From a virus (taxonomy: Duplodnaviria > Heunggongvirae > Uroviricota > Caudoviricetes): DNA of 16,397 nucleotides. This document shows, one piece after another, positions 1 through 16,270 of this stretch (positions are counted from its first letter, which is position 1; every line of letters begins with the position of its first letter). The DNA is taken from positions 1 through 16,397 of IMG/VR virus record IMGVR_UViG_2778261693_000004. The stretch is one strand, 5' to 3'. Made by a program: the position numbers and the translations under genes. The notes beneath the pieces were generated by a model. That model did not search any database, was not told the origin of the DNA, and saw only the letters and a program-made list of their open reading frames with translations.

Positions 1-1
1 G

Positions 2-166
2 GCATCCAACGCCATTCATGGCCATATCAATGATTTTCTGGTGCGTACCGGGTTGAGAAGCGGTGTAAGTGAACTGCAGTTGCCATGTTTTACGGCAGTG
101 AGAGCAGAGATAGCGCTGATGTCCGGCGGTGCTTTTGCCGTTACGCACCACCCCGTCAGTAGCTGA
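2..166 (+). CDS. 3' end of a plus-strand CDS running off the left edge; by P1 synteny possibly the C-terminus of the type III restriction subunit Res
   Basis: Frame 2 is open from the window edge to TGA at 164-166 (…[31 protein letters not shown]). It converges on the mat-position gene as res does in P1. I do not recognise the residues themselves. Confidence 0.3.
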
Positions 167-501
167 ACAGGAGGGACAGCTGATAGAAACAGAAGCCACT
201 GGAGCACCTCAAAAACACCATCATACACTAAATCAGTAAGTTGGCAGCATCACCAGCCTCATTTTGATGTCATTATTAGCAATTTAAAAAAGTTATGTCC
301 GAATATCATCGCTGAAGGCGTCGAAAACATTGATTGTCATAAGTTATCAAAAGGGATAGGGCTATGGGGCACTCAGGGATATTTTTTCCCATCAATTCCG
401 CTGACGGAGATTGAGTCCATAGATAGTAAGTGGCTATCAGATTTATGAGATGCAGAGAGTTAGGATATTGATATGAACATCTAAGCACCTCATTACTGTG
501 C

Positions 502-954
502 TTAAAAGATGTTATCCTTACCTGTTAATTTACCTTGAGGAACTTTAGTGAGCTCCATCCGATAAAATGCTTTTATCATATTTACAAATGGCTCATATGG
601 TGAATATTCGTTGTCTTGTTTAGTAACGGTGTCTGTCATTGTCCTGATGTAGTCTGCGCTTACCACGTTGTTGTTTGCTTCAATTAGTACCGGCCTGCCG
701 TTCATGAAGGGATCACGCAACCTTACACGCTGGCCAACTCGACCGGTAATAAAGCTGTTTTCCTCTTCCACCAGCACGATAAAACCCTTTTCCTCTTTTT
801 CTCGCAATTCGCGCAGCAGCTGGAGTTCCATATCGCGGCGGCGTTCAGGGTAGCTGGTCCGCTCAGCCATTATCAGCTCATTGTTGATCCATGCAGCAGT
901 CATTGACGCCGGTTTGCCGACGCTCATTGAAACAACGCATATTTTCTTATCCAT
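502..954 (-). CDS. Hypothetical protein at the position P1 gives to mat (between ref and res)
   Basis: ORF 502-981; I place the start at the internal ATG 952-954 (MDKKICVV…), which has an AGGGG Shine-Dalgarno 5 nt upstream. Assignment is by synteny only. Confidence 0.5.
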   Translation of the reverse strand: MDKKICVVSMSVGKPASMTAAWINNELIMAERTSYPERRRDMELQLLRELREKEEKGFIVLVEEENSFITGRVGQRVRLRDPFMNGRPVLIEANNNVVSADYIRTMTDTVTKQDNEYSPYEPFVNMIKAFYRMELTKVPQGKLTGKDNIF

Positions 955-1142
955 AGCGCCCCTACAAAAAAGAAAAGCCACCAGCGGCGGCTTAGCAATA
1001 CAACTGAAGGTAGCGCCCGGTACTCAGACTGTGCCGTCCATGGAATATTTGAAAGGGGATCCATCCGTACCGGGCATGTGATGATTCTGACTGAAGTCAC
1101 TTGTCAGTTGTCAATCATTTATCATTAAAAATAATATATTTA

Positions 1143-1703
1143 TTAGTGCATGATGTTTGCCATCTCATAGGCGTCAGCCAGTAACTCCATCTCTGACTTG
1201 TTCAGCAGGGTGAATTCTTTCTTGCCTCCAACCACACCATCGGCATGAACAGGGACCAGCCAGGGGTATTTTGCTCTTACTTCAGCCGGAGCTGCATGCT
1301 GGTGGTGCCATCTACAAAGAGGCAATTGCTTTTTATGACAACCCGGCGCGGTACGACCGGCGATATGGTGCAGAGACATCTCATTAGATATTACTCCATG
1401 CATATAGCAGGCAATGCAGGGGAGAGTGCCAAGAGCATTGGCGATGCGCCGTTCCTCCGCCGTTGGTGTTCTCCCCTTCAAGCCACGAGATTTTATTTTT
1501 ACCGCGCTTTTCCGCGTTTTGCTGGCTGGTAGGCGCTCTTTCTGTTTAGCGATACGGCGGTCGAGAGTATCCCGCATTTTCTGATATTGAGATTCTCGCC
1601 AGACCGGATCAGCCAACTTCTCCCGTTGCCGAGCGATCGCTCGTTCTCTGGCTGCCTTCTGCCACTTGCGGCACTGTTCAATTTTTTGTTCGATTGTTTT
1701 CAT
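1143..1703 (-). CDS. ref: Ref, HNH-family endonuclease that stimulates RecA-dependent recombination
   Basis: 186 aa, matching P1 Ref length. Cys/His HNH-like cluster (CIACYMHGV…HHIAGRTAPGCHKKQLPLCRWHH). C1 operator and TATAAT upstream; position after cra as in P1. Confidence 0.75.
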   Translation of the reverse strand: MKTIEQKIEQCRKWQKAARERAIARQREKLADPVWRESQYQKMRDTLDRRIAKQKERLPASKTRKSAVKIKSRGLKGRTPTAEERRIANALGTLPCIACYMHGVISNEMSLHHIAGRTAPGCHKKQLPLCRWHHQHAAPAEVRAKYPWLVPVHADGVVGGKKEFTLLNKSEMELLADAYEMANIMH

Positions 1704-1708
1704 ATGGC

Positions 1709-1736
1709 AAAAAAAAAAGGCGGCCTAATGGCCGCC
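1709..1736 (-). terminator. Intrinsic-terminator-like hairpin plus U10 on the minus strand, ending 5 nt before the ref ATG
   Basis: GGCGGCC-TAAT-GGCCGCC (1719-1736) with an A10 run at 1709-1718 on the plus strand, which is U10 after the hairpin on the minus-strand RNA. Confidence 0.5.
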
Positions 1737-1803
1737 AATGATGTCAAGGAGTGAAGTAATGGCAACGTCTTCGTAGTTGACAAAAACTGCGGCTCAATTA
1801 TAG

Positions 1804-1820
1804 CGATCTATTAGAGCAAT
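1804..1820 (-). promoter_or_regulatory. C1 repressor operator (Op2-like) in the ref promoter
   Basis: cgatctATTAGAGCAAT on the plus strand matches the reverse complement of ATTGCTCTAATAAATTT at 13/17. A perfect TATAAT lies on the minus strand at 1797-1802. Confidence 0.65.
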
Positions 1821-1926
1821 GATAGATATTTTGTTTATCGCTAATCACATTTTTTCACTTCAGTACCTGTGTGCTATACTCCTTCTTGATTGATTGGATG
1901 CGGAATACAAACCCGCTCTTTTGTGC

Positions 1927-1954
1927 AGCCTGGCTCCTTGCCAGGCTTTTTTTT
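1927..1954 (+). terminator. Plus-strand rho-independent terminator with no annotated plus-strand gene upstream
   Basis: AGCCTGGC-tcctt-GCCAGGCT hairpin followed by T8 (1947-1954). Candidate extended -10 (TGcTATACT, about 1873-1881) lies 50 nt upstream on the same strand. Confidence 0.45.
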
Positions 1955-2264
1955 ATTTCATCATGGAAGTTGTTAACGCTTTGGACCTTGCTGAACTGAT
2001 TGAGAGGGCTTTGTCAACGTGCCCCAAAAATTCGCCAAACTCAGACATCACTTTAGCAAAACCGCGCCGTGCTTCTTCCTCGGTGGCATTCATCACGAAA
2101 TGTTCAGCACCACGCATACTTTTGACAGGGAACGCAACGGATATTGAATCAATATCAGGCATTCTATCGCTCAGCTTTACAGTGACAATGACGGCTGGCG
2201 ACTGAATATTAGTGCTTACAGACAGCACTACATATTTTCCGTCGATGTTGAAATCCTTTCTCAT
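1953..2264 (-). CDS. cra: Cra (cre-associated) small protein
   Basis: 103-aa ORF with GGTGA Shine-Dalgarno 3 nt before the ATG. Its offset from cre/loxP matches where I recall P1 cra. The equal-length mirror ORF on the plus strand has no Shine-Dalgarno. Confidence 0.5.
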   Translation of the reverse strand: MRKDFNIDGKYVVLSVSTNIQSPAVIVTVKLSDRMPDIDSISVAFPVKSMRGAEHFVMNATEEEARRGFAKVMSEFGEFLGHVDKALSISSARSKALTTSMMK

Positions 2265-2280
2265 ATGTCACCATAAATAT

Positions 2281-2297
2281 CAAAGAATTAGAGCAAT
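2281..2297 (-). promoter_or_regulatory. C1 operator-like site between cre and cra
   Basis: caaagaATTAGAGCAAT, 13/17 to the reverse-complement consensus. Confidence 0.4.
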
Positions 2298-2314
2298 CAT
2301 TTACGCGTTAATGG

Positions 2315-3346
2315 CTAATCGCCATCTTCCAGAAGGCGCACCATTGCCCCTGTTTCACTATCCAGGTTACGGATATAGTTCATGACAATATTTACGTTGG
2401 TCCAGCCACCAGCTTGCATGATCTCCGGTATTGAAACTCCGGCACGGGCCATATCTCGCGCGGCTCCGACACGGGCACTGTGTCCAGACCAGGCCAGGTA
2501 CCTCTGGCCAGAGTCATCCTTAGCCCCGTAAATCAATCGGTGAGTTGCTTCAAAAATCCCTTCCAGGGCGCGAGTTGATAGCTGGCTGGTGGGTGATGGC
2601 GAGGCAACACCATTTTTTCTGACCCGGCAAAACAAGTAGTTATTCGGATCATCAGCCACACCAGAGACAGAAATCCATCGTTCGACCAGTTTAGTTACCC
2701 CCAGGCTAAGTGCCTTCTCTACACCCGCGGTACTAACCAGAGTTTTCGTTCTGCCAATATGGATTAGCATTCTCCCACCGTCTGTACGTGAGATATCTTT
2801 AACCCTGATCCTGGCAATTTCGGCTATACGTAACAGGGTGTTATAAGCGATCCCCAGAAATGCCAGATTACGTATATCCTGGCAGCGATCGCTATTTTCC
2901 ATGAGTGAACGAACCTGGTCGAAATCAGTGCGTTCGAACGCCAATGCCTGTTTTGCACGTTCACCGGCATCAACGTTTTCTTTTCGAATCCGCCGCATGA
3001 CCAGTGAAACAGCATTGCTGTCACTTGGTCGTGGCAGCCCGGACCGACGATGAAGCATGTTTAGCTGGCCCAAATGTTGCTGGATAGTTTTTACTGCCAG
3101 ACCGCGCGCCTGAAGATATAGAAGATAATCGCGAACATCTTCAGGTTCTGCGGGAAACCACTTCCGGTTATTCAACTTGCACCATGCCGCCCACGACCGG
3201 CAAACGGACAGAAGCATTTTCCAGGTATGCTCAGAAAACGCCTGGCGATCCCTGAACATGTCCATCAGGTTCTTGCGAACCTCATCACTCGTTGCATCGA
3301 CCGGTAATGCAGGCAAATTTTGGTGTACGGTCAGTAAATTGGACAT
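2315..3346 (-). CDS. cre: Cre site-specific tyrosine recombinase
   Basis: 343-aa translation (MSNLLTVHQNLPALPVDATSDEVRKNLMDMFRDRQAFSEHTWK…MVRLLEDGD) is recognisable along its full length as P1 Cre. loxP lies about 420 bp upstream. Confidence 0.97.
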   Translation of the reverse strand: MSNLLTVHQNLPALPVDATSDEVRKNLMDMFRDRQAFSEHTWKMLLSVCRSWAAWCKLNNRKWFPAEPEDVRDYLLYLQARGLAVKTIQQHLGQLNMLHRRSGLPRPSDSNAVSLVMRRIRKENVDAGERAKQALAFERTDFDQVRSLMENSDRCQDIRNLAFLGIAYNTLLRIAEIARIRVKDISRTDGGRMLIHIGRTKTLVSTAGVEKALSLGVTKLVERWISVSGVADDPNNYLFCRVRKNGVASPSPTSQLSTRALEGIFEATHRLIYGAKDDSGQRYLAWSGHSARVGAARDMARAGVSIPEIMQAGGWTNVNIVMNYIRNLDSETGAMVRLLEDGD

Positions 3347-3353
3347 TTAACAC

Positions 3354-3575
3354 TCAGACAATAGTTTTAAGTAAAGTGTACAGGATTGGCTCTGCCTTTA
3401 CCTGTTTATGGTTCTCGTCATAGAAACGCCAGCGACCGCGCGTGCGTTCTATTTTCTCTTCACCGCGCGATAATGACAGTTGGCAACTATCACGATCAAA
3501 CCCTTTTGCCCGCCAGTAACCACGGTTTTTCTCAAGCTCAAGATGAGTGGACACTTTAGCAGCTGAATATCCCAT
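3354..3575 (-). CDS. Small ORF (73 aa) immediately upstream of cre and translationally coupled to it
   Basis: ATG at 3573-3575 preceded by GAGGTG 4-5 nt upstream. Stop lies 7 nt before the cre ATG. Basic protein (MGYSAAKVSTHLELEKNRGYWRAKGFDRD…). Confidence 0.35.
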   Translation of the reverse strand: MGYSAAKVSTHLELEKNRGYWRAKGFDRDSCQLSLSRGEEKIERTRGRWRFYDENHKQVKAEPILYTLLKTIV

Positions 3576-3671
3576 TTTTCACCTCTGATTGATTGGTGGT
3601 GCTAAGTGCGCTACGCGAAATCTGGAGCACTAACACTGCCAACATTTCGCAGATTTTACGTAGCGCAACCT

Positions 3672-3693
3672 TGATCAAATGATCAAGTGATCA
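3672..3693. promoter_or_regulatory. Cluster of three TGATCA (Dam GATC) sites in the cre upstream region
   Basis: TGATCA at 3672-3677, 3680-3685 and 3688-3693, with a fourth at 3741-3746. Consistent with the reported Dam-sensitive cre promoter region. Confidence 0.5.
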
Positions 3694-3764
3694 CTATTTG
3701 ACCTGATAAGGTATTGAACTGTATGGATTTACAGGTAAATTGATCATGTTCAATAACCCTTAAG

Positions 3765-3798
3765 ATAACTTCGTATAATGTATGCTATACGAAGTTAT
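3765..3798 (+). other. loxP: loxP recombination site
   Basis: Exact ATAACTTCGTATA-ATGTATGC-TATACGAAGTTAT. Confidence 0.98.
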
Positions 3799-3841
3799 CA
3801 GGTCCGAAGAGGAGTTTACGTCCAGCTGCGCACAAAAATCA

Positions 3842-3858
3842 AGAATTATTAGAGCAAT
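3842..3858 (-). promoter_or_regulatory. C1 operator (Op99-like) upstream of coi
   Basis: agaattATTAGAGCAAT, 15/17 to the reverse-complement consensus. Confidence 0.7.
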
Positions 3859-3924
3859 AAATTTTGAGAGAAAAATCCCACTCCACCAGCTAAAAACTGG
3901 ATTGTTTTTCATAGTTGTTTGACA

Positions 3925-3941
3925 ATTGCTCTAATAAATTA
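3925..3941 (+). promoter_or_regulatory. C1 operator (Op99-like) upstream of coi, opposite orientation to the previous site
   Basis: ATTGCTCTAATAAATTa, 16/17 to consensus. Confidence 0.75.
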
Positions 3942-4179
3942 TAGTTTTGCCGCCGTTACGTAATACGACTTTGGATTCACTATTTAATGTGTCTTCAGCG
4001 TTGTAGAGCGGCTCAGAAGGAAATGAGCAAACAGGGAAACCTTATACAACGGCATTACAGCTATGCATTGCTCATCTTACACACAGCGCAATGTTGTTAG
4101 ATTACCCCAGCATGGATCATGGGTGAAACAGTAGGTCAGAGCTTCAGGCTCTGTGTTGTCAATACAGTGAGGCATAATT

Positions 4180-4389
4180 ATGGCTTTCATTCAACCAACC
4201 ATCGACGACGTTAGACATTGCTCTAACGCTTTATCTGTAGACCCTGCCGAAACCGACGCTGCCCGCACCATTGCTGAACACTACTCAAAGATATCCAATC
4301 AGGACTACCGCATCACCCAAGACGACCTGGATGACCTCACTGACACAATCGAATATCTCATGGCAACTAACCAGTTAGCCTCACAATAA
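4180..4389 (+). CDS. coi: Coi, C1 inactivator
   Basis: 69 aa, the length I recall for P1 Coi. Sits directly upstream of c1 with flanking C1 operators. GAGG Shine-Dalgarno. Confidence 0.75.
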   Translation: MAFIQPTIDDVRHCSNALSVDPAETDAARTIAEHYSKISNQDYRITQDDLDDLTDTIEYLMATNQLASQ

Positions 4390-4405
4390 ATGCACTAATA
4401 AATCT
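4389..4405 (+). promoter_or_regulatory. C1 operator-like site between coi and c1
   Basis: aATGCaCTAATAAATcT, 14/17 to consensus. Confidence 0.5.
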
Positions 4406-4499
4406 ATTATTTTTGTTTGATCCCTCTATAATATAGGTCAGTAATGACCGGTTTTCTCAGCCGGGCGTTATTGACCATGTCAATTCTGGAGGAGGATCA

Positions 4500-5351
4500 A
4501 TGATAAATTATGTCTACGGCGAACAACTGTACCAGGAGTTCGTCAGCTTCAGGGATCTCTTTCTAAAAAAAGCTGTTGCACGCGCCCAACACGTTGATGC
4601 CGCCAGCGACGGTCGTCCTGTTCGCCCGGTTGTCGTTCTGCCGTTCAAAGAAACGGACAGCATTCAGGCTGAAATTGATAAATGGACTTTAATGGCGCGG
4701 GAACTGGAACAGTACCCAGACCTCAATATCCCAAAGACTATTTTATATCCAGTGCCTAACATCCTTCGCGGTGTACGTAAGGTTACAACTTATCAGACAG
4801 AAGCTGTGAACAGCGTCAACATGACCGCTGGCCGCATTATTCATCTGATTGATAAGGATATTCGCATCCAAAAAAGCGCGGGGTTCAATGAGCACAGTGC
4901 GAAATACATAGAGAACCTGGAAGCAACAAAAGAGCTAATGAAGCAGTACCCGGAGGATGAAAAATTCCGTATGCGCGTACACGGCTTTAGCGAAACAATG
5001 CTGCGCGTCCACTACATTTCCAGTAGCCCTAACTACAATGATGGTAAATCAGTTAGTTACCATGTGCCACTGTGTGGCGTGTTTATCTGCGATGAAACCC
5101 TCCGTGATGGAATCATCATCAACGGTGAATTCGAGAAAGCAAAATTTAGCCTTTATGACTCCATAGAACCGATCATCTGCGACCGCTGGCCGCAGGCAAA
5201 AATATATCGCCTGGCAGATATTGAAAATGTAAAAAAACAAATTGCCATCACTCGCGAAGAGAAAAAGGTCAAATCAGCCGCATCAGTTACGCGCAGTCGT
5301 AAAACTAAGAAGGGGCAGCCAGTAAACGACAACCCCGAAAGCGCGCAATAA
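4500..5351 (+). CDS. c1: C1 prophage repressor
   Basis: 283 aa, the length I recall for P1 C1. GGAGGAGG Shine-Dalgarno. Follows coi, about 0.7 kb from loxP. Window carries nine copies of its operator motif. Confidence 0.85.
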   Translation: MINYVYGEQLYQEFVSFRDLFLKKAVARAQHVDAASDGRPVRPVVVLPFKETDSIQAEIDKWTLMARELEQYPDLNIPKTILYPVPNILRGVRKVTTYQTEAVNSVNMTAGRIIHLIDKDIRIQKSAGFNEHSAKYIENLEATKELMKQYPEDEKFRMRVHGFSETMLRVHYISSSPNYNDGKSVSYHVPLCGVFICDETLRDGIIINGEFEKAKFSLYDSIEPIICDRWPQAKIYRLADIENVKKQIAITREEKKVKSAASVTRSRKTKKGQPVNDNPESAQ

Positions 5352-5354
5352 ATT

Positions 5355-5376
5355 ATGCCCGGCATCAACCGGGCAT
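5355..5376. terminator. Hairpin between convergent c1 and antirepressor genes, possible bidirectional terminator
   Basis: ATGCCCGG-catcaa-CCGGGCAT, 8-bp stem, with A/T-rich flanks. Confidence 0.4.
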
Positions 5377-5383
5377 TCTTCCA

Positions 5384-6529
5384 TTATTCAGCCGCCACCG
5401 GTTTTAACAAGCCAGCATCGAGCAGTTTACGCGTCAACCACTGTTGTCCTTTCCCCGTTAATTGGGGCGTCAGCCGTATCTGGTAGCCATCTTCATCATC
5501 CAGCACCACTTCTTTCACTGTGAAATATCCGGCGTTTATGTACTGCTGGAACGGCACATTTTTACGCCCGCCGGACGCTATCAGAATGCCGTTCTCCCGT
5601 AACCAGGCAAACAGCGCGTTTTGCTTCAGCCCAACAACCTTTGCAAAATTACCAATCAGGATCCCCTTAGCCACTGATACACGGTCGGCAAAATCGACCT
5701 TGGGGGCTGCGGCCACCAGTTGTTGATTTAGCTGGTGGGCCTTCTGTTCCAGTAGCTGCTTTTGTTCAGCCAGCTCGGCAGCCAGGCGCAAGGCTTCAGG
5801 TAGTGTTTGGGGGATTGCGACCGGTTGCTGTTCTTTTTGCCGGAAGTAGCTGTCTTCCAGTTTTTCAAAGAATGCCCATGCTTCATCTGTGTTTACGATC
5901 TTAGACATGCGTGCCGCTCCGCGTTCGGCCCAAAGAATTACCTGGCTTGTATATTTGCTAACCAGGTGACTAGTAGTCACCAGCCTTTTAAATTCCTTTA
6001 ATTTTTAACCAGTTAAGAGATAGTAATGCTTACCTTCTTCAAAGCGATCGGAGTTGCGAGACAAATTTTTACGAATATTAGCTTCATCGGTTCCATACCC
6101 CTTAGCAAGAGTTTCGGTCGTTACTACACGCACTCCCAGCCATTCCAGAACGGGAATTTCATCAGACTGATTCTGAACAACCACCAGCTCTGATTCCTGA
6201 ACTGAAGTTGCATGAATTTTTTCTGATTTAACGTTAGTTGCTTTCATTCTGTGTGCCTCCTTGCGTGCTTCGGCTGCGACGGTTGCGTAATTCAGATGAC
6301 CCTGTTCGAGCAGGTATTCACGGATATCGGTCACAGCGATAGCCTTTAAGCGCAGATAAACATCGCGCTTATCGACATCCAGATGCGGGTATTCCTTTTC
6401 AAGAATTGCTGCGAGTTCTTTCGCTGATAGAAGAGATTTAGTGCGGATCATGTAATCCGCAATCTCGTACGATGTTATTCGTGAGTGATTTATTTCCATG
6501 AAGTGGCGTCCCTGCCAGTTAAGTAACAT
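5384..6529 (-). pseudogene. Antirepressor-like gene (ORF6N/Rha-type N-terminal domain plus KilA-C/ANT C-terminal domain) split by an in-frame TAA at 6005-6007
   Basis: ORFs 6005-6529 and 5384-5980 are in the same frame. The upstream ORF stops mid-domain (…SDRFEEGKHYYLLTG*) and the domain continues after the stop (KLKEFKRLVTTSHLV…TDEAWAFFEKLEDSYF). The downstream part carries a KilA-C-like motif (GNFAKVVGLKQNALFAWLRENGIL…PFQQYINAGYF) and begins only at a GTG. Confidence 0.6.
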
Positions 6530-6599
6530 CCTGTCACCTACTGATTAGCCCATGTCAACTAATCAACGTCGAATATAATACCATCGATTAAAGAAATAG

Positions 6600-6616
6600 C
6601 AATACATTAGAGCAAT
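6600..6616 (-). promoter_or_regulatory. C1 operator-like site upstream of the antirepressor-like gene
   Basis: caatacATTAGAGCAAT, 14/17 to the reverse-complement consensus, 71 bp upstream of the ATG at 6529. Confidence 0.55.
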
Positions 6617-6617
6617 T

Positions 6618-7664
6618 TTATCTAACGCTCGACGAATGACTTGTGATAGCGCCGACTCCAAGCGCGTAATCAAAGAACAATCGTTGATGCATCGCCAGCC
6701 TACCGTGCGTCTTCTCCCAATTATCGCGGTCACGCTCAATATCACGCTGGCATGACTGGCACAGAGGAATAGCATAAATGTCATGCGCGCATAATCGACT
6801 ATAACGAACGATATAAGGCGTAATGTGAGCGCCAGCTCCCGCCGCTCCACACCCACAGCATGGACGGGAAGCAACAAAGTCCATGTACTCAGGTAATTTT
6901 AGCGATTGCAGTTTTGGTATTTTGAAATGCGCCATACCTGGGTCGGAGTCAACATCCACAGGGCATACTTTTGCACGCATCGGCGCGGCGCGTTCTTCCA
7001 TCATCTGAACATATGCTGTAGCGCGATCGTCATACGGGCGAATATCCGCCTCTTTCAGTGGTCCGCTATCCTGCGGAGTAGCCTTCATCTTATTTATTAT
7101 TGATATGCGGCAGACTTCTTCCGGCATCAGGTGCATCATGTTGCGCATGAAAGCCCACCAGCACAGCTCCTGAATACTTAAATCATGGCTATTTGAAAGG
7201 CCCATTTCCTGACGGGCGACATCCAGTATCCAGTTAACGCGATTATTGTGCAGCGTTTCTTTCAGCTCATTAAAACCACGCATCCGGTAATGGTTATCGT
7301 GATGCCAGCACAACAACACCGCGCTATTGTCTCGTTCAGCGTGGACAATATGGTTGTCACACCAACTACGATCTGCGGCCTGGCATTGACCCTCTTTCCT
7401 ACGCAACCACGCCACCAGCGCGTCAATTCCACCAATACGGCGAAACAGTTCATCGCTGTTAAAAAACGGCTGCAACGCCTCATTTGTTGCCATGGTTTGC
7501 TCGGTAACAACGAGGCCGTCTTCCATGTGCTCGATTAACTCACGCGGCACCGGCTCCATAATAAATTTACGGCCAGCCTCCACCAGCTTTCTGACCTCCT
7601 GATCCACTTTGAACGTGGCGAGGCCAAGCTCTTTCTGTACAAAGGGAGTAATTACGGCTTTCAC
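6618..7664 (-). CDS. Hypothetical 348-aa protein with a C-terminal Cys/His cluster resembling the Ref HNH-like motif
   Basis: GTG start with AAGGTG Shine-Dalgarno 4 nt upstream. C-terminus …[42 protein letters not shown]. At the position I recall for P1 pdcB, but I do not recognise the sequence. Confidence 0.6.
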
Positions 7665-7691
7665 ATCACACCTTTAATCACTGATTGGGCT

Positions 7692-7871
7692 TTATCTGCT
7701 GCCCGACATTATCTGTTTAAGCACAACCATTTCCTGACGGCATAACACAGCAATAGCGGTCCTGGCACCAATTTGCTTACTAACCAGGTATTGCTTTATC
7801 TTGCGGCGACTCACGCCATCAAGAAGCATCTTTAACGCTTCACGGGACAATTTGTTGTATTTGCGTGCCAT
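7692..7871 (-). CDS. Small basic protein (59 aa) immediately downstream of doc
   Basis: ATG at 7869-7871, 4 nt after the doc stop (MARKYNKLSREALKMLLDGVSRRKIKQYL…). At the position I recall for P1 pdcA. Confidence 0.45.
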   Translation of the reverse strand: MARKYNKLSREALKMLLDGVSRRKIKQYLVSKQIGARTAIAVLCRQEMVVLKQIMSGSR

Positions 7872-7875
7872 TAAT

Positions 7876-8256
7876 CTACTCCGCAGAACCATACAATCTA
7901 CGTAACGTGGCGGCGACAGAAGATACAGATATCTCGCCAGTCGCAGCGCCTACAGTAAGGTCTGCCAGTTCAGGTGAATCAAATACCTGCACCCCATTAC
8001 GGCGTAGAAATAGCAGCGCACTGTTTAGCGCGGTACGCTTATTGGCATCATTGAATATATGCCCTCTCGCTGTAGCCACCAGGTAGGTGGCGGAGACTTC
8101 GAAAAGGTCGGTGATCTCTTCGTAGGCAACTCTGGCCTGAACTCTCCCGATAATGGCCTCTGCCCTACCCGGATCTGACATTCCCGGCAGGCCGCCGTAG
8201 CGGTTTATATTCGCATCATGAAGCGCAATAAGTTCTTCCGGTGATATATGCCTCAT
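7876..8256 (-). CDS. doc: Doc toxin (Fic-fold kinase) of the phd-doc addiction module
   Basis: 126 aa ([22 protein letters not shown]…[23 protein letters not shown]…), recognised as P1 Doc. Its start overlaps the phd stop. Confidence 0.95.
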
Positions 8257-8477
8257 TATCGGTTAACCAGTTCCTTGTTGGTGGAGTCCAGGGTGTCAAA
8301 CAGGGATGCAAATTCAGCATCCAGCGCCGCTTTTTTGTAGGCTTCGAAAGTAGCCTTGCTGACAATTACTGCTGGCTCACGGCCTCTGCGGGTGATTTCA
8401 ACCTCTTCCCCGGCTTCAACATTGTTGAGCACTTCAGAAAGGTTGCCGCGCGCGGTACGGAAGTTAATGGATTGCAT
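8256..8477 (-). CDS. phd: Phd antitoxin
   Basis: 73 aa from the ATG at 8475-8477 ([49 protein letters not shown]…), recognised as P1 Phd. GAGGTG Shine-Dalgarno. Confidence 0.93.
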
Positions 8478-8484
8478 AAACACC

Positions 8485-8510
8485 TCGTGTACTCGTTATG
8501 TGTACACAAT
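8485..8510. promoter_or_regulatory. Phd/Doc autoregulatory operator with palindromic GTGTACAC sites
   Basis: Perfect palindrome GTGTACAC at 8501-8508 and a one-mismatch copy at 8487-8494, between a -10-like TATAAT on the minus strand and the phd Shine-Dalgarno. Confidence 0.55.
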
Positions 8511-8549
8511 TATAAACTTCACAGGCATAAAGCACCAGCACTTTGCAGC

Positions 8550-8939
8550 TTAAATCACCGGACAATCATCAAATTCCCCACTTCGGGCATCATTAATGAC
8601 ATGAGTGATCACACCAAACACAGCATTACTCCCCGTGCATCCATCGTCATCCACTGGTAACGCCTCTTTCTTCCCGGTGCTTAAATCCTCCAGGTGCTGG
8701 CGCGGATACTTTCGGTATCTCTTTATGCGATATTCACCCTCCATAGCGCACACAAGCAGCGAACCATCAACTGGAGTAAGCGAAGAATCAACCACCAGCA
8801 AAGCACCCTGCAATATTCCCTCACGGTGATGGCTATCAGCTGCCCGCATGAAGTAGGTTGCTGATGGATGTCTAATTATCTGCTGATCAAGAGAAATTCG
8901 GCTTTCAACATAATCCGCCGCAGGAGAAGGGAAACCCAT
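8550..8939 (-). CDS. humD: HumD, UmuD'-like SOS mutagenesis protein
   Basis: 129 aa starting [30 protein letters not shown]…, which aligns with the processed form of E. coli UmuD ([30 protein letters not shown]…); C-terminal [12 protein letters not shown] matches FGVVIHVVKAMR. Confidence 0.9.
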   Translation of the reverse strand: [129 protein letters not shown]

Positions 8940-8958
8940 AGCGTTTTACCTCAAAAAT

Positions 8959-8974
8959 ACTGTTTATCTATACA
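8959..8974. promoter_or_regulatory. LexA box (CTGT-N8-ACAG) in the humD promoter
   Basis: taCTGTttatctatACAGca, about 20 bp upstream of the humD Shine-Dalgarno and ATG, overlapping a plausible TTGCAC/TAATGT promoter on the minus strand. Confidence 0.65.
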
Positions 8975-9113
8975 GCATACATTAAAGAAGCACCTTTGGT
9001 GCAAACGCGTTATGTACATCAACCACCGCTGATGATTTTTGTGCGCTTTGCTACTATTCATCACCGCGGGATCAGCGTAACCTCGTTGCCAATCAGTTAA
9101 TAAGGAATTAGCT

Positions 9114-9698
9114 ATGCCTAATCGCATTCCTCTCGATCCTGTATTGCCCAAAAATTTTGACTGCACTCCTAACGAGAAACGCTCTAAAGCTCAGCTGGAC
9201 GCCTAGTGGGACCATCCATATGGGGTTACACAACCTGACGGGAAAATTGTAGTTTATTGTCTGAATGGTGGGGCGTGGGACCGTCCATCCATGCTTTGTT
9301 TGGCAGATAACTATGATGAAGCCTGTGAACTTGCCGAAAGACAGCAGGCAAGCTGGGTAAAAACACGGTCTGAACCGACATTCATGTTTTCAAAAGAACC
9401 GCCATTTATACTGGCGAGGATGCCGCAGCGACCGGATCATCAACAAGAAATTGTTGCTGAATTTTCCTCAAGGGATGAGATGAATCTCTTCTCATTAAAG
9501 CAGGAAGAAAGGGATCGCGTCGAAGTGTCTCCAACTCTCGACCACAACCGGATGAACCTGGCCCAGCTCGCCTGGTACAGCAAAGAATTAGAGATGTCTA
9601 TTGCCCGGCTTGAAAACGAAAAAGCCGCTATCCAAGTCCAGCACGAAGTAGTTCTGAACCGGATTAGAGAAATGCAAAACGATAACAGGGGATTTTGA
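9114..9698 (+). CDS. Hypothetical protein; reading frame from a well-positioned ATG is interrupted by an in-frame TAG at 9204-9206 (uninterrupted ORF starts at 9291)
   Basis: AAGGAA Shine-Dalgarno 8 nt before the ATG at 9114. Frame is open for 30 codons, then TAG, then continuously to 9698. The ATGs at 9291 and 9314 have no Shine-Dalgarno. The stop abuts the next gene's ATG. Confidence 0.45.
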
Positions 9699-10055
9699 AT
9701 GGCTAAAATCGAGTACCATCGCGATCGCGGTAATTACCTGGAAATATACGATCATGAATCTCTTAACGATATCAACGATGCGTTATATGAATACTGTGAA
9801 AAAACGAGCATCACAGATGCACCTGATGCATTTGTCGAGCTGCCGGTATATCTCCGCGACATCTATGCAATACGAACACCGCCCGTATCGGTGATTCACA
9901 TTGGCTATGTCCGCCTGTCCATCGAAGAAGATGAAGATCGTTATATCGTGCGCCACTATACATTGGACAGAAAAGAACTTCCTAATGAATGGAACATGAG
10001 TAATTTCTACAACGGTGAATATGGCTTAAAATCCGCTAATAATTTACGGTCATAA
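9699..10055 (+). CDS. Hypothetical 118-aa protein, translationally coupled to the upstream gene
   Basis: ATG at 9699 directly follows TGA at 9696-9698. AGGGGA Shine-Dalgarno. Sequence not recognised. Confidence 0.55.
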   Translation: MAKIEYHRDRGNYLEIYDHESLNDINDALYEYCEKTSITDAPDAFVELPVYLRDIYAIRTPPVSVIHIGYVRLSIEEDEDRYIVRHYTLDRKELPNEWNMSNFYNGEYGLKSANNLRS

Positions 10056-10900
10056 TCTATACAGGCATGTATAACAACAACGAGCCTATTAGCTGTCAAC
10101 AACGTTATTTCCTCAAATAAGAAAAAGCAGAAAACAAATTGTTTAAGGTCACAAATTGTGGCCTTGATGGAGGAGGGAGGCTTATTGGCTATGGCTAAAA
10201 ATCAAATTAGACACTTCATGTTGCTGTAGCTCATCAAGATCCGAGGCCACAAAACCTTTTCCGAAAAACTTCACAAGTAACTCACTAGCCGCATCATTGT
10301 CACCTATTACACGAAAGTCATACGGCAACGTCGCAAGTTGACGATGTAATCCTGCTGAGAAAGTCGAATCTAACAGCGCCCAGAATTCCCACCGCAGGAT
10401 AATACTCGCCTCTTAATACTGTATATATGTTGTTACGATATGTTTTTCTGTCTCTAAAAAAAGATGTTTGAAGGGGATAAAAATATACAATTCCAACAAA
10501 CGTTATTTTTAACAATTTTTTTCTTTGCGTTGACTTTCCCGGACACCTTGTCTGACCTAAGGTGCGCGAAAGCCACTTTTTCCTTCCTGAGTTATCCACA
10601 AAGTTATGCACTTGCAAGAGGGCCATTTTCTACATATTGTGGTGGCTAACAGATGAAATGAATGTAGATTAATTGAAGATAAGGAGAAAATTTGAGATGC
10701 AATCATGACGTTAATAGATAGGGTCTGCATTACAGACCCCACCCGCATCAAGGAATTAGCCGTTCCCTGATGTTTTTCCGAAAACATGTGCCGTAAGCTC
10801 ACGTTAACGACTTTCATTCACCGAATCCAACTATATAGGGGTTGGGTTTCTACGTCAACGTGAGCAAGTGCACCTTTACATTTGACAAGGAACCACCTGA

Positions 10901-11038
10901 ATGAACGCTTTTTTTCAGTTCCTGAGTGCATTTTTAGATGCGCCTATTATTAGCCAGATTCTGGCTATTATCCTCATCATCGTTTTGATTTTGCTTTTAA
11001 GGTCAGTAAAAAATGGAATTATGCACTGGCTTACTTAA
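10901..11038 (+). CDS. Small hydrophobic peptide (45 aa), single predicted transmembrane helix
   Basis: MNAFFQFLSAFLDAPIISQILAIILIIVLILLLRSVKNGIMHWLT with AAGGAA 8 nt upstream. Sits in an otherwise ORF-poor AT-rich region. Confidence 0.3.
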   Translation: MNAFFQFLSAFLDAPIISQILAIILIIVLILLLRSVKNGIMHWLT

Positions 11039-11113
11039 TGTTTCAGTGAAACATTAAAATCTCCTTGATGTGGAAACAATCATTTTCTGTATGTGCTGGT
11101 GGGCACCTGTAGT

Positions 11114-11476
11114 TCAGCTTTCGTTGGCATTTAACTTCGTCTTTGCTTTCTCCACCAGCAACTTCCAGATGCCTATTTCATTAGCAGCCGCCTTGATGGC
11201 GGCATAAAAAGCATCTTGCTGATCGTAACGCTGGATCTGTTTTTTCAGTTTTGCCTCCACCAATTTAATTTCATTACGTGCTTTCTGAAGCCGCATCACC
11301 GCCCGGTTACGTCTGTTCTTGTATAGCGTGTTAATCTCTGACAATTGCTTTAATTTACCAGCCTGACTGCGGATTATCGCCTCCCTGGCTTCTGCCGTGC
11401 GTCTCATCTGATCTCTTAAGAGTTCACCGTTTTCGATAATTCTTTCAAGGTGTTTGATGTGATCTGCAACTCTCAT
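11114..11476 (-). CDS. Hypothetical 120-aa basic, probably coiled-coil protein; last gene of a five- or six-gene minus-strand operon
   Basis: Start overlaps the stop of the upstream 293-aa gene. Lys/Arg/Glu-rich heptad-like sequence. Confidence 0.6.
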   Translation of the reverse strand: MRVADHIKHLERIIENGELLRDQMRRTAEAREAIIRSQAGKLKQLSEINTLYKNRRNRAVMRLQKARNEIKLVEAKLKKQIQRYDQQDAFYAAIKAAANEIGIWKLLVEKAKTKLNANES

Positions 11477-12354
11477 ACTTCACCCTCGCTTGTATCACCA
11501 GCGTCCACCAACGACAATAAAGCCCTGGCCATCTTATGAACCAACAGTGCATCAATAATGCCAAGCGTATGCCCCGGCTTAATGTTTAATGCTGCCTCAA
11601 GATGACACCTTTCCAGACCGCTTTTCTCGGCTTGTTTATGATGATATGGCGTAATAACGTCGCCCAAAACACGGCTAATTCTTTCTCGTAATTGCTGGGT
11701 GCCAGCACACTTGATCGCTGTATCGTGGAGACGGTTAACCAGTTCGCGATAAACATGCGGCTTAATGCGGATACGTTCACCGGTGACGCCCTTTCCTGGC
11801 GTAGGCACCGAACTATCCGGAATATCCGGATAGTTGCCAGCCAGTCTACGCAAAACAGCCTTAATTGCATCAATACGGTCATCATCAACTTTTTCTACAA
11901 TATTGGAATTTAAATACTTCGAAGCCTTGCTATGCCAATCGCTGGTTTTAGGGTCTTGTCCATCCATCAAACGCCAAGCTTCAGCGATTAACTCATAGCC
12001 AGTAACAGTGGCTTCCTGCGCATCACCAATCAGTTGTGTGATCTCTCTTTCAAGCATGCTTAGAGCGTTAGGCATTGGTTTTTCTTCCGGTACTACTGGA
12101 ACGGGGGGAGCGGCGTAGACCTCAATAATTCCATTATCAATAGGCCATTCTCCATCCTTGAGGTAGTCACTTGTGCCGTCAACTTGCTGTTCTGCAATGT
12201 GGAATGCACCTATTGGTTTTGCTTCCAGTGATGCCAGAGCAATTCGTGCCAGTTCTTCCGCTTCTTCTGCTGGCAGTACAACGTTGCTACCAGGTCCGTA
12301 TGTTTCGCGCCACTGCTTGATTGTCAGTAGTCGCTCTTTGGTAATAGTGGTCAT
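11473..12354 (-). CDS. Hypothetical 293-aa protein
   Basis: Long ORF overlapping both neighbours by 4 nt (operon coupling). Sequence not recognised. Confidence 0.65.
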   Translation of the reverse strand: MTTITKERLLTIKQWRETYGPGSNVVLPAEEAEELARIALASLEAKPIGAFHIAEQQVDGTSDYLKDGEWPIDNGIIEVYAAPPVPVVPEEKPMPNALSMLEREITQLIGDAQEATVTGYELIAEAWRLMDGQDPKTSDWHSKASKYLNSNIVEKVDDDRIDAIKAVLRRLAGNYPDIPDSSVPTPGKGVTGERIRIKPHVYRELVNRLHDTAIKCAGTQQLRERISRVLGDVITPYHHKQAEKSGLERCHLEAALNIKPGHTLGIIDALLVHKMARALLSLVDAGDTSEGEV

Positions 12355-12866
12355 GCCGCGTTTCCTTCTTTCTTATTAACAATTACACCGTCATATATTT
12401 CATTAAGGTGCCCTCTCAACTCCATGCGCCTTAATGCAGATAACATGTAATCGCATTCAACCTGCTTATTTCCAGTAAATGGCTTATCGTCAGGATTACC
12501 CCAACAGCAATTACCCTTGGGCCACCCATGTACTTTCCGTACTCTTCCGTTAACAACGTGAAGTAATCCCCAGCCAGGTGGTAAATCCTCAATTGAAATA
12601 ATTCCCGGCTCACTAATAAAGAATCGCCAGTCGCCCATTCCAAGAGACGGATTTTTACGAAAACGCTTTTTTCTATCTGCCAACAAGTCAGCACGAGAAC
12701 ACTTCGCCTCTATCAGGCATGATGCTGAATTTCTGAATCCCATAGCATCTGGCTGTTCTCCGGTACTGGTTACAGCTATAAAGCGGTCATGAAAACAAAC
12801 CTTGAACCCGTTGCGCTTAAGGAACTTGTACGCAATCTGACAGAGTTCGCGGTGTGTTAACGCCAT
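12351..12866 (-). CDS. Putative PD-(D/E)xK-fold nuclease (MmcB-like)
   Basis: 171 aa with a D…E-x-K signature (…GEQPDAMGFRNSASCLIEAKCSRADLLAD…). ATG overlaps the stop of the upstream PP-loop ORF. Confidence 0.55.
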   Translation of the reverse strand: MALTHRELCQIAYKFLKRNGFKVCFHDRFIAVTSTGEQPDAMGFRNSASCLIEAKCSRADLLADRKKRFRKNPSLGMGDWRFFISEPGIISIEDLPPGWGLLHVVNGRVRKVHGWPKGNCCWGNPDDKPFTGNKQVECDYMLSALRRMELRGHLNEIYDGVIVNKKEGNAA

Positions 12867-12867
12867 A

Positions 12868-13234
12868 TCACTCTCCTTTGATGCGAATGCCAGCGTCAGA
12901 CATCATATGCAGATACTCAACTGCATCCTGAACCCATTGACCGCCAATCCCGTAATAGCGATGCGTAATGATGTCGATAGTTACTAACGGGTCTTGTTCG
13001 ATTAACTTCCGCAGAAACTCTTCCAGGTCACCAGTGCAGTGCTTGATGACAGGAGTTTTCCCAGGATGGCGAACAACAAGAAACTGATTTCCGACTTCAC
13101 GGACTTCGTTGCTTTCCAGTTCTGCTATCCATAAAAATGAAATGGACGCTAACGCCAGCTTTTCGCTGTGCTTCCATCAGATGAACGAGATAAGCCGATG
13201 TTCGTCCACCTGAAAAGCTGACGACTTGATGCAT
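12868..13234 (-). pseudogene. PP-loop (SGGxxS) ATP-pyrophosphatase-like gene, apparently frameshifted
   Basis: ATG at 13232-13234 gives MHQVVSFSGGRTSAYLVHLMEAQRKAGVSVHFIFMDSRTGKQRSP*. A second frame overlapping it by about 80 nt continues to 12868 (…NQFLVVRHPGKTPVIKHCTGDLEEFLRKLIEQDPLVTIDII…). The switch lies near a T5 run / GGAAAG around 13100-13135. Confidence 0.45.
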
Positions 13235-13243
13235 ACTCACGGT

Positions 13244-13822
13244 TTATTCCTGAATGCGCTTAAACTCGATTACCCATACCAACGGGTTAGATAGCCAGTT
13301 ATCCTGCCCGTAAATACTGCGCCAGATATCACCAAAACCAACGCGATAAACAGCTTCAGATGGCGTAATCTTGTACGTCGCCGGAGTTGCGCCTTCTGCT
13401 TTAGCATCTTCCTCGCTCATGTCATGCAGCCGTTCCACACGCACGTCGGTAATTTCCAAAAGAATGCGCGATGCCCAGCGCGGCATGTGAATTGATGGCG
13501 TCCACTTTTCTGATACTGGTTTATTACAAACCTCGACCGGAACCCGGTGCGTTTGTTCTGTCCAGGAGTTACGCACGCTTGCGCGATAAACCAGCGTTGC
13601 GACGTCCGTCGCTTTGCCATGTACCCGGTAGGTTTCGCGAACCCAAATACGATCGCCCGGTTGACCATATGGACAATGCTTGGCAAGCAACTCTGCGGCC
13701 ACTGCCCGTCCATAGAATTTTTCTTCAACAATCCTGCGAGTCTGTGTTTTATTCCCGCCAAGAATTGCCCGGACCATCTCATCGTTAAAAATCATGCCGC
13801 GCTCTTTCACTTCGCCTTTCAT
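13244..13822 (-). CDS. ASCH-domain-like protein
   Basis: 192 aa. N-terminal MIFNDEMVRAILGGNKTQTRR fits the ASCH G-x-K-x-x-T-x-R signature. GGGGG Shine-Dalgarno. Confidence 0.6.
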   Translation of the reverse strand: MKGEVKERGMIFNDEMVRAILGGNKTQTRRIVEEKFYGRAVAAELLAKHCPYGQPGDRIWVRETYRVHGKATDVATLVYRASVRNSWTEQTHRVPVEVCNKPVSEKWTPSIHMPRWASRILLEITDVRVERLHDMSEEDAKAEGATPATYKITPSEAVYRVGFGDIWRSIYGQDNWLSNPLVWVIEFKRIQE

Positions 13823-13831
13823 GCATCCCCC

Positions 13832-13918
13832 TTACCCATGTGCGACGATGCCGCCAAAAGTGATAGAGAACAGCCAGAAATAGATCGCGGCCATAATGAT
13901 TTTGAATGCCGTGTTCAT
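13832..13918 (-). CDS. Small hydrophobic peptide (28 aa), first ORF of the operon
   Basis: MNTAFKIIMAAIYFWLFSITFGGIVAHG with AGGAG 9 nt upstream. Its stop lies 9 nt before the ASCH gene's ATG. Confidence 0.3.
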   Translation of the reverse strand: MNTAFKIIMAAIYFWLFSITFGGIVAHG

Positions 13919-13945
13919 ATTTTCAGCTCCTGTGATTGATTGGAT

Positions 13946-13977
13946 ACATGCCGCGCCTTGCGGCATGTTTTTATTTT
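13946..13977 (+). terminator. Plus-strand rho-independent terminator in the leader of a minus-strand operon
   Basis: ACATGCCGC-gcctt-GCGGCATGT (9-bp GC-rich stem) followed by TTTTTATTTT. No plus-strand gene upstream. Confidence 0.45.
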
Positions 13978-13991
13978 CACTTTCTCTGTTT

Positions 13992-14008
13992 TAAAAATCA
14001 TTATTTAT
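13992..14008 (-). promoter_or_regulatory. C1 operator in front of the ASCH/PP-loop/nuclease operon
   Basis: ttATTTATTAGAGCAAT, 15/17 to the reverse-complement consensus. Confidence 0.7.
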
Positions 14009-14016
14009 TAGAGCAA

Positions 14017-14523
14017 TTATTGTTGATGGAGAAGCGCGTTTTCATACTCCCTGACCATTAACGTAAGCACGCCGTGCCTCCTGAAAACACGCGCCACTTC
14101 AATCTTATCTTCCAGCGCGAACGCAATTTTGCTTAGACCAATTTTCTTAAGGAGATCAATCTTTGCTGGACCGTCATTTCTGTCATCGGTGGCGGGACGC
14201 ATAGATAGCAAAGGCTCTGCCCCATTTGTTACGTGCTTACGCAACCAGGCTCGTGTTTTATCCCTGGCTATCTCACAGCGCCCGGTTACAAACCAGAGCG
14301 TGTAAATGCTGGACAACTGGCGCACCATATCAATAACTGGAGTGATGGAAGCATCAGTGTCACAGGCAAGGTTAAACTCGTTCCAGTGCTCTGTTAATGC
14401 ACCGTTGCCAGGCGGTGGAAGTAAATGCAGCCTGTCTTCCGTTGCCTCCGATATCGTTCCATCAATATCTACTATGACAATGTACGGACGTTCCTGGTGT
14501 GCGTGTTTATTGAAAATACTCAA
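14017..14523 (-). CDS. HAD-superfamily phosphatase (polynucleotide 3'-phosphatase-like DxDGT motif)
   Basis: 168 aa with motif I VIVDIDGTIS. TTG start with GAGGAGG Shine-Dalgarno 4 nt upstream. Confidence 0.7.
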   Translation of the reverse strand: MSIFNKHAHQERPYIVIVDIDGTISEATEDRLHLLPPPGNGALTEHWNEFNLACDTDASITPVIDMVRQLSSIYTLWFVTGRCEIARDKTRAWLRKHVTNGAEPLLSMRPATDDRNDGPAKIDLLKKIGLSKIAFALEDKIEVARVFRRHGVLTLMVREYENALLHQQ

Positions 14524-14542
14524 ATGCCCTCCTCATTGGACG

Positions 14543-14576
14543 AAAAAAATGCTGGTGGGCGCACTCCACCAGCATT
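14543..14576 (-). terminator. Minus-strand rho-independent terminator after the 420-aa gene
   Basis: AATGCTGGTGG-gcgcact-CCACCAGCATT (11-bp stem) with A7 on the plus strand 5' of it, i.e. a U-run after the hairpin on minus-strand RNA. Confidence 0.55.
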
Positions 14577-14595
14577 AAAAGTGACACTGTAACTA

Positions 14596-15858
14596 TCAGC
14601 GAACGTAAATAGTGCCGCCGTTCACTTTTTCCCATGCATCGCTAAGTGCATAGCAAACATCAAGAAGTCTTCTTGCCGCTGTTTCCTCTAAACCCAATTC
14701 GACAACCAACTGCTCATGACGGCGGGTAACCACATCAAACAGGGTATGCAGCCCTTTAGCTGCCAGATCATCAATAAATTCCGGTTCGAACGGCAGCTCT
14801 GCATCTGCCAACATAACCTCTTGCGCCCACTCAACTCGACGGACCAGTTCCGGGCGGCGGCTTTCCATCTCTTTACAGATCAATTCATGGAAGAACTCTA
14901 CCCAACCTTCCGGCTGGAACTCGCGGAAAATTGCCAACGGCTGGAAGTTTGGCATCAACCATTCGTTGATTCGGATATCAATGGCATAGCCCATGTCGCA
15001 GCAGAACTGATAAGCAAAGTCCAGCTTAGAAACGATATAAGGACGCTCGTTATTGAACTCTTTAGGCGATGAGATCCCATAAGCCAGGAGGCGCGGGAAG
15101 AATGAGATTTGCCCTAACGTCGGATGGAGTTTGCTTGCAGGAAAACGGCGCTCAGTAATGCCATACATTTCCTTCTTGAGCGTCGCAAATTTAGCATTTT
15201 CATTAACCAGCGCGGTAACCTCTGCTTTTTTATTAGCAAATGCCACGCGCGCTTCGCTTGCATCTTTAATAGTTTTTTTGAGCTGTTGGTTAAGATCGGC
15301 GACCTGCTTACGCAGTTCCTGTCGCTCGCTTTTAGCTTTGTTATAGCGTTTCTCAAGGTTAAAAGGATCAAGTTTCATGATCTCTTTATATTGAGATTTT
15401 AGCGTTGAAATCTGTGAGTTCCGCAGTTCAACCATCGCGGTCATTTCATTGAGTTTTGTTTCCAGCTCAATGCTTATACGTTCGGCATTATCAGCACGCT
15501 GGTTGGCGTCATGCGTCGCATCGTCGATCGCGTCCTGTTGCTGGCGTTTCAAATGTTCAATTTGCAGCTGAAGCTCTTCAATTTCTTTACCCTTCAGACC
15601 GAGATCCAACTGCATATTTTCAGCTGCATCTACCAGGGAGTTATGGCTATCAGCTTCTGCGTTATAAACATCAATAAGCTGTGCGTGAAGCATCTCCGCT
15701 GACTGAACCGCATTATCAAAAAAACGCGCTGTGAGGTCATCACAACTAACGCGGCGTTGCGCGGCCCGGATGTTCTGGATAATGGCCGGGATACCGGCAT
15801 TCAGGACGTCAGGGATAGATACATTTTCGATTGATTGGTTTTGTGCTGAAGTGCTCAT
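14596..15858 (-). CDS. Hypothetical 420-aa protein, N-terminal coiled-coil plus a C-terminal globular domain
   Basis: Long ORF; residues about 80-220 are heptad-rich (…EIEELQLQIEHLKRQQQDAIDD…). Sequence not recognised. Confidence 0.65.
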   Translation of the reverse strand: MSTSAQNQSIENVSIPDVLNAGIPAIIQNIRAAQRRVSCDDLTARFFDNAVQSAEMLHAQLIDVYNAEADSHNSLVDAAENMQLDLGLKGKEIEELQLQIEHLKRQQQDAIDDATHDANQRADNAERISIELETKLNEMTAMVELRNSQISTLKSQYKEIMKLDPFNLEKRYNKAKSERQELRKQVADLNQQLKKTIKDASEARVAFANKKAEVTALVNENAKFATLKKEMYGITERRFPASKLHPTLGQISFFPRLLAYGISSPKEFNNERPYIVSKLDFAYQFCCDMGYAIDIRINEWLMPNFQPLAIFREFQPEGWVEFFHELICKEMESRRPELVRRVEWAQEVMLADAELPFEPEFIDDLAAKGLHTLFDVVTRRHEQLVVELGLEETAARRLLDVCYALSDAWEKVNGGTIYVR

Positions 15859-15859
15859 T

Positions 15860-16078
15860 TCAAAGTTCCGTATTAGCTTGTGCTTCGGTCATTTTTCCTA
15901 AGTATGAAGGAGGAAGGACTACGCAATTTGTATCCAGTCCCTCACCTATGGCAGCCTGTAAAATTCTGGCTAAGGTGAGTCTCTTGTTGCGATACCTGGT
16001 GATGACATGCCTGATACCGCCGGTCGGCGTAACAAAGGCGATCAGCCAGTAGTGATATTTCCGTCGGAATGGCCACAT
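15860..16078 (-). CDS. Hypothetical 72-aa protein, first gene of the operon
   Basis: ATG with AAGGTG 5 nt upstream. Stop is 1 nt from the 420-aa gene's ATG. C1 operator pair immediately upstream. Confidence 0.5.
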   Translation of the reverse strand: MWPFRRKYHYWLIAFVTPTGGIRHVITRYRNKRLTLARILQAAIGEGLDTNCVVLPPSYLGKMTEAQANTEL

Positions 16079-16092
16079 AGTGCACCTTGTAG

Positions 16093-16109
16093 ATTGCTCT
16101 AATAAAAAA
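16093..16109 (+). promoter_or_regulatory. C1 operator, proximal site of an inverted pair
   Basis: ATTGCTCTAATAAAaaa, 14/17 to consensus. Confidence 0.6.
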
Positions 16110-16141
16110 CGTTATGAGTGTACATCACGTTTTAAAAATAT

Positions 16142-16158
16142 GGAATTATTAGAGCAAT
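16142..16158 (-). promoter_or_regulatory. C1 operator, distal site of the inverted pair
   Basis: ggaattATTAGAGCAAT, 14/17 to the reverse-complement consensus. Confidence 0.6.
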
Positions 16159-16270
16159 ATTATTCTGATTCTCGCTCAAAAAACGCGCTAATGAGAGGAA
16201 GCCAATCCTCTGACACTTCACGCGGTCGCGGTTTGCCATGGAAGAAGATTATTCGGCAGTCTTTTGGTAA

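Follow-up and report, generated by a model that had tools for sequence, protein, structure and literature searches.

A frequent natural Cre allele with two substitutions, most likely neutral, beside an unchanged loxP site on a P1-like phage-plasmid of Escherichia coli

The cre gene examined here (positions 2315..3346, minus strand) lies in a 16,397-nucleotide stretch of viral DNA, hereafter the window, and was found to encode a tyrosine recombinase of 343 amino acids that differs from wild-type P1 Cre by A249S and A252P only. We consider it very probable that this protein, named SPSP here after its residues 249-252, is a frequent natural Cre allele carried by a P1-like phage-plasmid of E. coli, that it is a canonical Cre, and that its two substitutions are most likely neutral or nearly so. 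Judging from established P1 biology, the enzyme would recombine the adjoining, unchanged loxP site and thereby serve in the resolution of plasmid dimers and in the cyclisation of incoming terminally redundant phage DNA. The stretch formed by residues 249-252 is naturally polymorphic, and the changes most likely represent standing variation that is shuffled by recombination among P1-like elements. Beyond the correct identification of the window as part of a wild P1-like phage-plasmid, the significance of the two substitutions is slight.

The protein predicted from the open reading frame list was compared to wild-type Cre chains of known structure (PDB 1nzb, 1ouq, 2crx and 3mgv; 343 amino acids; E=1.8e-229). 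By this approach, 341 of the 343 residues were found to be shared, and A249S and A252P were the sole amino acid differences. The initial annotation had reported two residues different from P1 Cre; the reference sequence that it gave proved correct, as P1 carries alanine at both 249 and 252 (PDB Cre chains and the cre gene of AF234172), and the alignment stopped two residues short of identity to the reference. The location that it gave (2580-2625) overlaps the peptide KNGVASPSPTSQLS but is a few bases off, since codons 244-257, which encode this peptide, occupy 2576..2617 on the minus strand. Codon 249 (2600..2602, minus strand) is TCG for serine in the window and GCG for alanine in P1, P7 and Salmonella phage SJ46. 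Codon 252 (2591..2593, minus strand) is CCC for proline, compared to GCC for alanine in the same three phages and TCC for serine in other natural alleles. A third change lies between them at codon 251 (2594..2596, minus strand), where TCA is synonymous with the TCT of P1. The state of codon 251 was found to be linked to residue 252, with TCA in the APSS, SPSS and SPSP forms of residues 249-252 and TCT in the APSA form.

The cre genes of P1 (AF234172), P7 and SJ46 served as references for a codon-by-codon comparison. Between P1 and the window, 27 nucleotide differences were detected in 26 codons (97.4% DNA identity), 25 of them synonymous and 2 non-synonymous. By the Nei-Gojobori method, dS was 0.109 and dN was 0.0026 for this pair, and the resulting ratio of 0.023 points to strong purifying selection on cre. 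P7 Cre has the APSA form and also differs from the window protein at positions 178 and 280, whereas SJ46 Cre, likewise APSA, also differs at position 206. The APSS and SPSS forms were found on plasmids of E. coli, Salmonella and E. albertii. All of these alleles (P7, SJ46, APSS and SPSS) are equal in length to the window protein, at least 98% identical to it, and nearly all are accompanied by the same loxP.

The close spacing of three changes, all within 10 nucleotides, could suggest that the two amino acid differences arose by error during sequencing or assembly of the window; nothing more specific speaks for errors, and we regard this explanation as exceedingly unlikely. The spacing represents no excess of clustering given 27 differences in 1032 nucleotides (permutation, P=0.39). 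In addition, an identical copy of the entire cre DNA was found in 7 independent complete plasmids of PLSDB, a collection in which 701 plasmid records carried cre at 95% DNA identity or above. A 40-nucleotide probe across the three linked changes matched 80 plasmids exactly, and the P1 version of this probe matched 276-283. When a 30-amino-acid peptide around the site (confirmed beforehand to be unaffected by low-complexity masking) was used as query, 706 PLSDB records were recovered, of which 109 (15%) were identical, 152 had one difference and 440 had two. The identical full-length protein is catalogued under the name 'MULTISPECIES: site-specific integrase [Enterobacteriaceae]', has been encountered on at least 1000 contigs and belongs to a protein cluster at 90% identity that comprises 2403 distinct sequences. 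The existence of the intermediate alleles SPSS and APSS likewise speaks against error. An artefact of the window is thus refuted by these independent occurrences, and the SPSP protein is an already known, common natural Cre allele of P1-like plasmids. Among cre-bearing records deposited as phages, all 21 had two differences in the peptide and none (0/21) had the SPSP or SPSS form.

The window protein has the features of a canonical Cre of P1-like phages (Punavirus). The tyrosine recombinase / phage integrase family PF00589 matched residues 139-329 (E=6.4e-33; 114 bits compared to a cut-off of 27.1). Residues R173, E176, K201, H289, R292, W315 and Y324, which are the seven catalytic residues of Cre with Y324 as the nucleophile, were all retained. 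Twelve DNA-contact or helix J residues that govern loxP specificity (K43, K86, Q90, Q94, R241, K244, N245, T258, R259, E262, G263 and E266) were also unaltered, based on a list for helices B, D, J and the 241-245 interface that was taken from PMC5766204 and PMC7438526. In the structural study of Tre and Cre, base contacts are described at 241-245, helix J (259, 262 and 263) is given the contacts to the major groove, and no role is assigned to residues 249 and 252 (PMC5766204). By their numbering, these two residues would be placed between the loop that contacts the minor groove (241-245) and the recognition helix J (approximately 258-266). A proline at 252, just ahead of helix J, could alter the local conformation; a single-sequence AlphaFold2 model of Cre had a mean pLDDT of 47, with the entire C-terminal domain below 50. 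From the sequence comparisons, we infer that SPSP Cre has normal activity and specificity and that A249S and A252P are most likely neutral or close to it.

The DNA around cre was next considered. A site search revealed a 34/34 match to loxP, ATAACTTCGTATAGCATACATTATACGAAGTTAT, at 3765..3798 on the minus strand, with 0 matches expected by chance. The loxP site consists of 13-bp inverted repeats that flank an 8-bp spacer, GCATACAT. It starts 452 nucleotides upstream of the cre ATG, which is the modal spacing in related loci (shared by 51). Between the two lies cra, the Cre-associated open reading frame (3354..3575, minus strand; 73 amino acids; 2 amino acid and 4 nucleotide differences from P1 cra). 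On the other side of cre are a homologue of c8 (1953..2264, minus strand; 103 amino acids; 7 amino acid differences from P1 C8) and ref, for the recombination enhancement function (1143..1703, minus strand; 186 amino acids; 4 amino acid differences from P1 Ref). The c1 gene for the phage repressor (4500..5351, plus strand; 283 amino acids) was recognized by the annotation 'phage repressor protein C1' of plasmid pMRE162 (4764..5615 of locus L084). Thus, the P1 gene order ref–c8–cre–cra–loxP–c1 is kept in the window. When compared to the P1 system (PDB 1NZB, 2CRX and 3MGV; AF234172 and X03453), the catalytic and contact residues, the 34-bp loxP and the order loxP-cra-cre-c8-ref are all as in the window, and the divergence from P1 in cra, c8, ref and the intergenic DNA, at 1-5%, is similar to that of cre (each region being 95-99% identical).

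This context bears on whether the gene could have been derived from a laboratory construct or vector with an engineered Cre variant. Many GenBank phage records name cre 'GST-loxP-cre recombinase fusion protein', a label that might appear to favor such an origin, to which we assign next to no probability. Two amino acid changes would by themselves be insufficient to exclude an engineered cre, and the exclusion therefore rests on the remaining evidence. At the DNA level, 25 synonymous changes separate the window gene from the P1 cre that vectors carry. Its native neighbors and loxP are in place, cra directly precedes cre with no GST or vector sequence adjoining, and collinearity with natural P1-like plasmids and phages extends over the 16-kb window. 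A vector origin is refuted by this genomic context. The name itself was seen on natural P1-like phage records (e.g., KU760857, ON018986 and MH422554), which apparently acquired that of a synthetic construct by automated annotation.

The window was also compared at full length to P1-like phages and to complete plasmids and genomes. SJ46, P7 and P1 were collinear with it and covered 81%, 65% and 53% of its length, respectively, at about 97% identity, with synteny over the immC / cre / ref / phd-doc / pac region. The closest relative was pMRE162 of E. coli MRE162 (NZ_CP119403.1), which was 99.96% identical over 14.5 kb; by local alignment, window positions 255..12859 and 14452..16397 were 99.97% and 99.95% identical to this plasmid. 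The cre DNA of pMRE162 is 100% identical to that of the window, its product is WP_029393497.1 ('site-specific integrase'), and the annotated neighbors include the C1 repressor, Ref, Phd/Doc and a DUF968 protein. On these results, the window belongs to a wild P1-like phage-plasmid of E. coli that is close to pMRE162; it is neither a vector nor any of P1, P7 and SJ46, all three of which have A249 and A252. The main grounds are the native gene context and the synonymous differences, and less the two amino acid changes by themselves. The view taken in the initial annotation, that of a natural P1 relative as opposed to reference P1 or a cloning-vector cre, is upheld by the same evidence together with the near-identity to pMRE162. 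The plasmid is 76.8 kb compared to 94.8 kb for P1 and, with a nearest complete relative of only this size, the element in the window may be defective as a phage.

Two differences from pMRE162 were observed. The plasmid (FRA record) is without 1592 bases of the window, 12860..14451, and appears to have a deletion that corresponds to this segment. Within the segment lies a pap phosphatase region homologous to that of P1/P7, with matches to the pap region in P7, SJ46, RCS47 and JL22; an open reading frame with a PNKP-type phosphatase domain (PF25109, E=3.5e-11) was located at 14017..14523 on the minus strand. The first 254 bases of the window also differ. They did not align to pMRE162, which holds a gene for an EAL-domain protein at the counterpart position, and a few other plasmids and phage phi456 match the window from base 1. 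The edge at 1..254 has the appearance of a mosaic boundary. Among the complete E. coli genomes of the collection, none contained the entire window at 100% identity, pMRE162 being the closest. All 5,426 complete E. coli genomes matched some part of the window, mostly on the chromosome (77,306 places), which indicates that the window includes segments common to ubiquitous prophage or other DNA of the chromosome. Matches to lambdoid and Stx phages were detected around window positions 12055..12894.

To place the SPSP form among its relatives, 80 cre loci were fetched from IMG/VR, and 83 genes were analyzed that comprised 79 of these loci together with the window, P1, P7 and SJ46. Residues 249-252 were APSA in 45 genes, APSS in 17, SPSS in 12, SPSP in 8 and APTS in 1, and the same forms were found among members of the 90% identity protein cluster. 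The four main forms are encoded by GCG CCA TCT GCC (APSA), GCG CCA TCA TCC (APSS), TCG CCA TCA TCC (SPSS) and TCG CCA TCA CCC (SPSP). Among the 83 genes, common amino acid polymorphism of Cre was confined to positions 178, 206, 249 and 252. The textbook Cre is therefore one of several common natural alleles that differ at 249 and 252, with loxP constant. In a neighbor-joining tree constructed without codons 249-252 and rooted at the midpoint, the SPSP alleles formed one clade nested among SPSS alleles. This topology fits a final step of S252P (TCC>CCC) on an SPSS background, as read from a midpoint-rooted tree of a gene that recombines.

Recombination was evident by two approaches. The changes required by parsimony on the cre tree were 5 at position 249 and 4 at position 252, and many synonymous third positions equaled or exceeded these counts with up to 9 changes. 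As homoplasy at many synonymous sites is equal or greater, the pattern points to pervasive recombination among cre alleles and not to recurrent selection. The one IMG/VR locus (L007) that was left out of the 83-gene set by the filter, owing to an extra L11F, also encodes SPSP. Its cre gene differs from that of the window at 18 nucleotides, of which 17 lie within nucleotides 33-666 and 1 lies at nucleotide 1014. This confinement of 17 of the 18 differences to the first two thirds of the gene indicates recombination inside cre.

These data also bear on the possibility that the substitutions are adaptive, in that 249-252 would be a functional hotspot under diversifying selection; the benefit would then lie in an adjusted activity, DNA-binding kinetics or site selectivity of Cre, or in escape from a host or competitor factor. 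We consider this very improbable. In its favor, only four residues of Cre are commonly polymorphic and 249 and 252 are among them, three residues (A, S or P) occur at position 252, and 5 and 4 changes are needed at the two positions. Further, RecHTLV, which was evolved from Cre as a designer recombinase, has A248V, A249V and P250S, and directed evolution of Cre to new targets has repeatedly fixed changes adjoining the variant residues (PMC10362392); the stretch 249-252 is therefore not necessarily inert and can influence activity or selectivity. However, the homoplasy at many synonymous sites is as high or higher and is attributable to recombination, and the L007 cre is a visible recombinant. 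The chance probability that two of four common sites fall within four codons is about 0.1 by rough estimate, and another common polymorphism, at T206, falls in a flexible loop (198-208), as would fit a relaxed constraint on loops. Moreover, loxP is identical across SPSP, SPSS and most other loci: the canonical site was present in 8/8 SPSP loci (the window and 7 IMG/VR loci) and in 12/12 SPSS loci of the sample. We saw no change of loxP that co-varied with the Cre allele, and with all 8 SPSP and 12 SPSS loci canonical there is no sign of co-evolution of enzyme and site.

A more specific proposal is that 249-252 forms a naturally tuned element, with the stepwise series APSA, APSS, SPSS and SPSP altering binding kinetics, synapsis or tolerance of lox variants such that SPSP Cre would be measurably unlike the laboratory enzyme. 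We doubt this strongly. If true, recombinase engineers would gain a natural variant at positions also hit by directed evolution (A248V, A249V and P250S). Literature searches on A249S, A252P, A249 and A252 of Cre recovered RecHTLV only and no paper on natural variants; neither a functional assay of the SPSP allele nor a deep mutational scan of Cre was found, and nothing useful emerged on split-Cre sites around residues 251/252. Differences in activity between the alleles, if any, would be of interest to recombinase engineers, and nothing here suggests them. Selectively neutral or nearly neutral variation thus remains our preferred account of the two residues.

Variation at the site itself was noted elsewhere in the IMG/VR sample. 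In three cre-positive P1-like loci (L026, L032 and L047), the 34-bp loxP and 1-2 further nucleotides were cleanly missing about 450 nucleotides upstream of cre, with collinear flanks; the window reads GGACCTG, loxP and then CTTAAGGG, compared to AGACCCTTAAGGG across the junction in L026. The IMG genome identifiers of the three loci are near-consecutive, and a project or lineage is possibly common to all of them. A probe for this junction gave 0 matches among 72,556 complete plasmids. The absence reflects a rare lineage or, alternatively, an artefact of assembly at the palindrome. Three divergent loci of APSS type (L073, L080 and L081) have about 400 bp extra between cra and cre, with an open reading frame that starts ATGTTTAAT; owing to this insertion, their loxP lies beyond the 700-nucleotide flank that was fetched. 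Natural lox variants were also detected, each in one IMG/VR locus, with the spacers GCGAACAT, GCGTTCAT and GCATGCAT in place of the canonical spacer or with the left arms ATAGCTTCGTATA and ATAATTTCGTATA. All of these variants adjoin APSA or APSS alleles of Cre and 0 adjoin SPSP or SPSS. For the variant spacers, incompatibility with canonical loxP would be expected.
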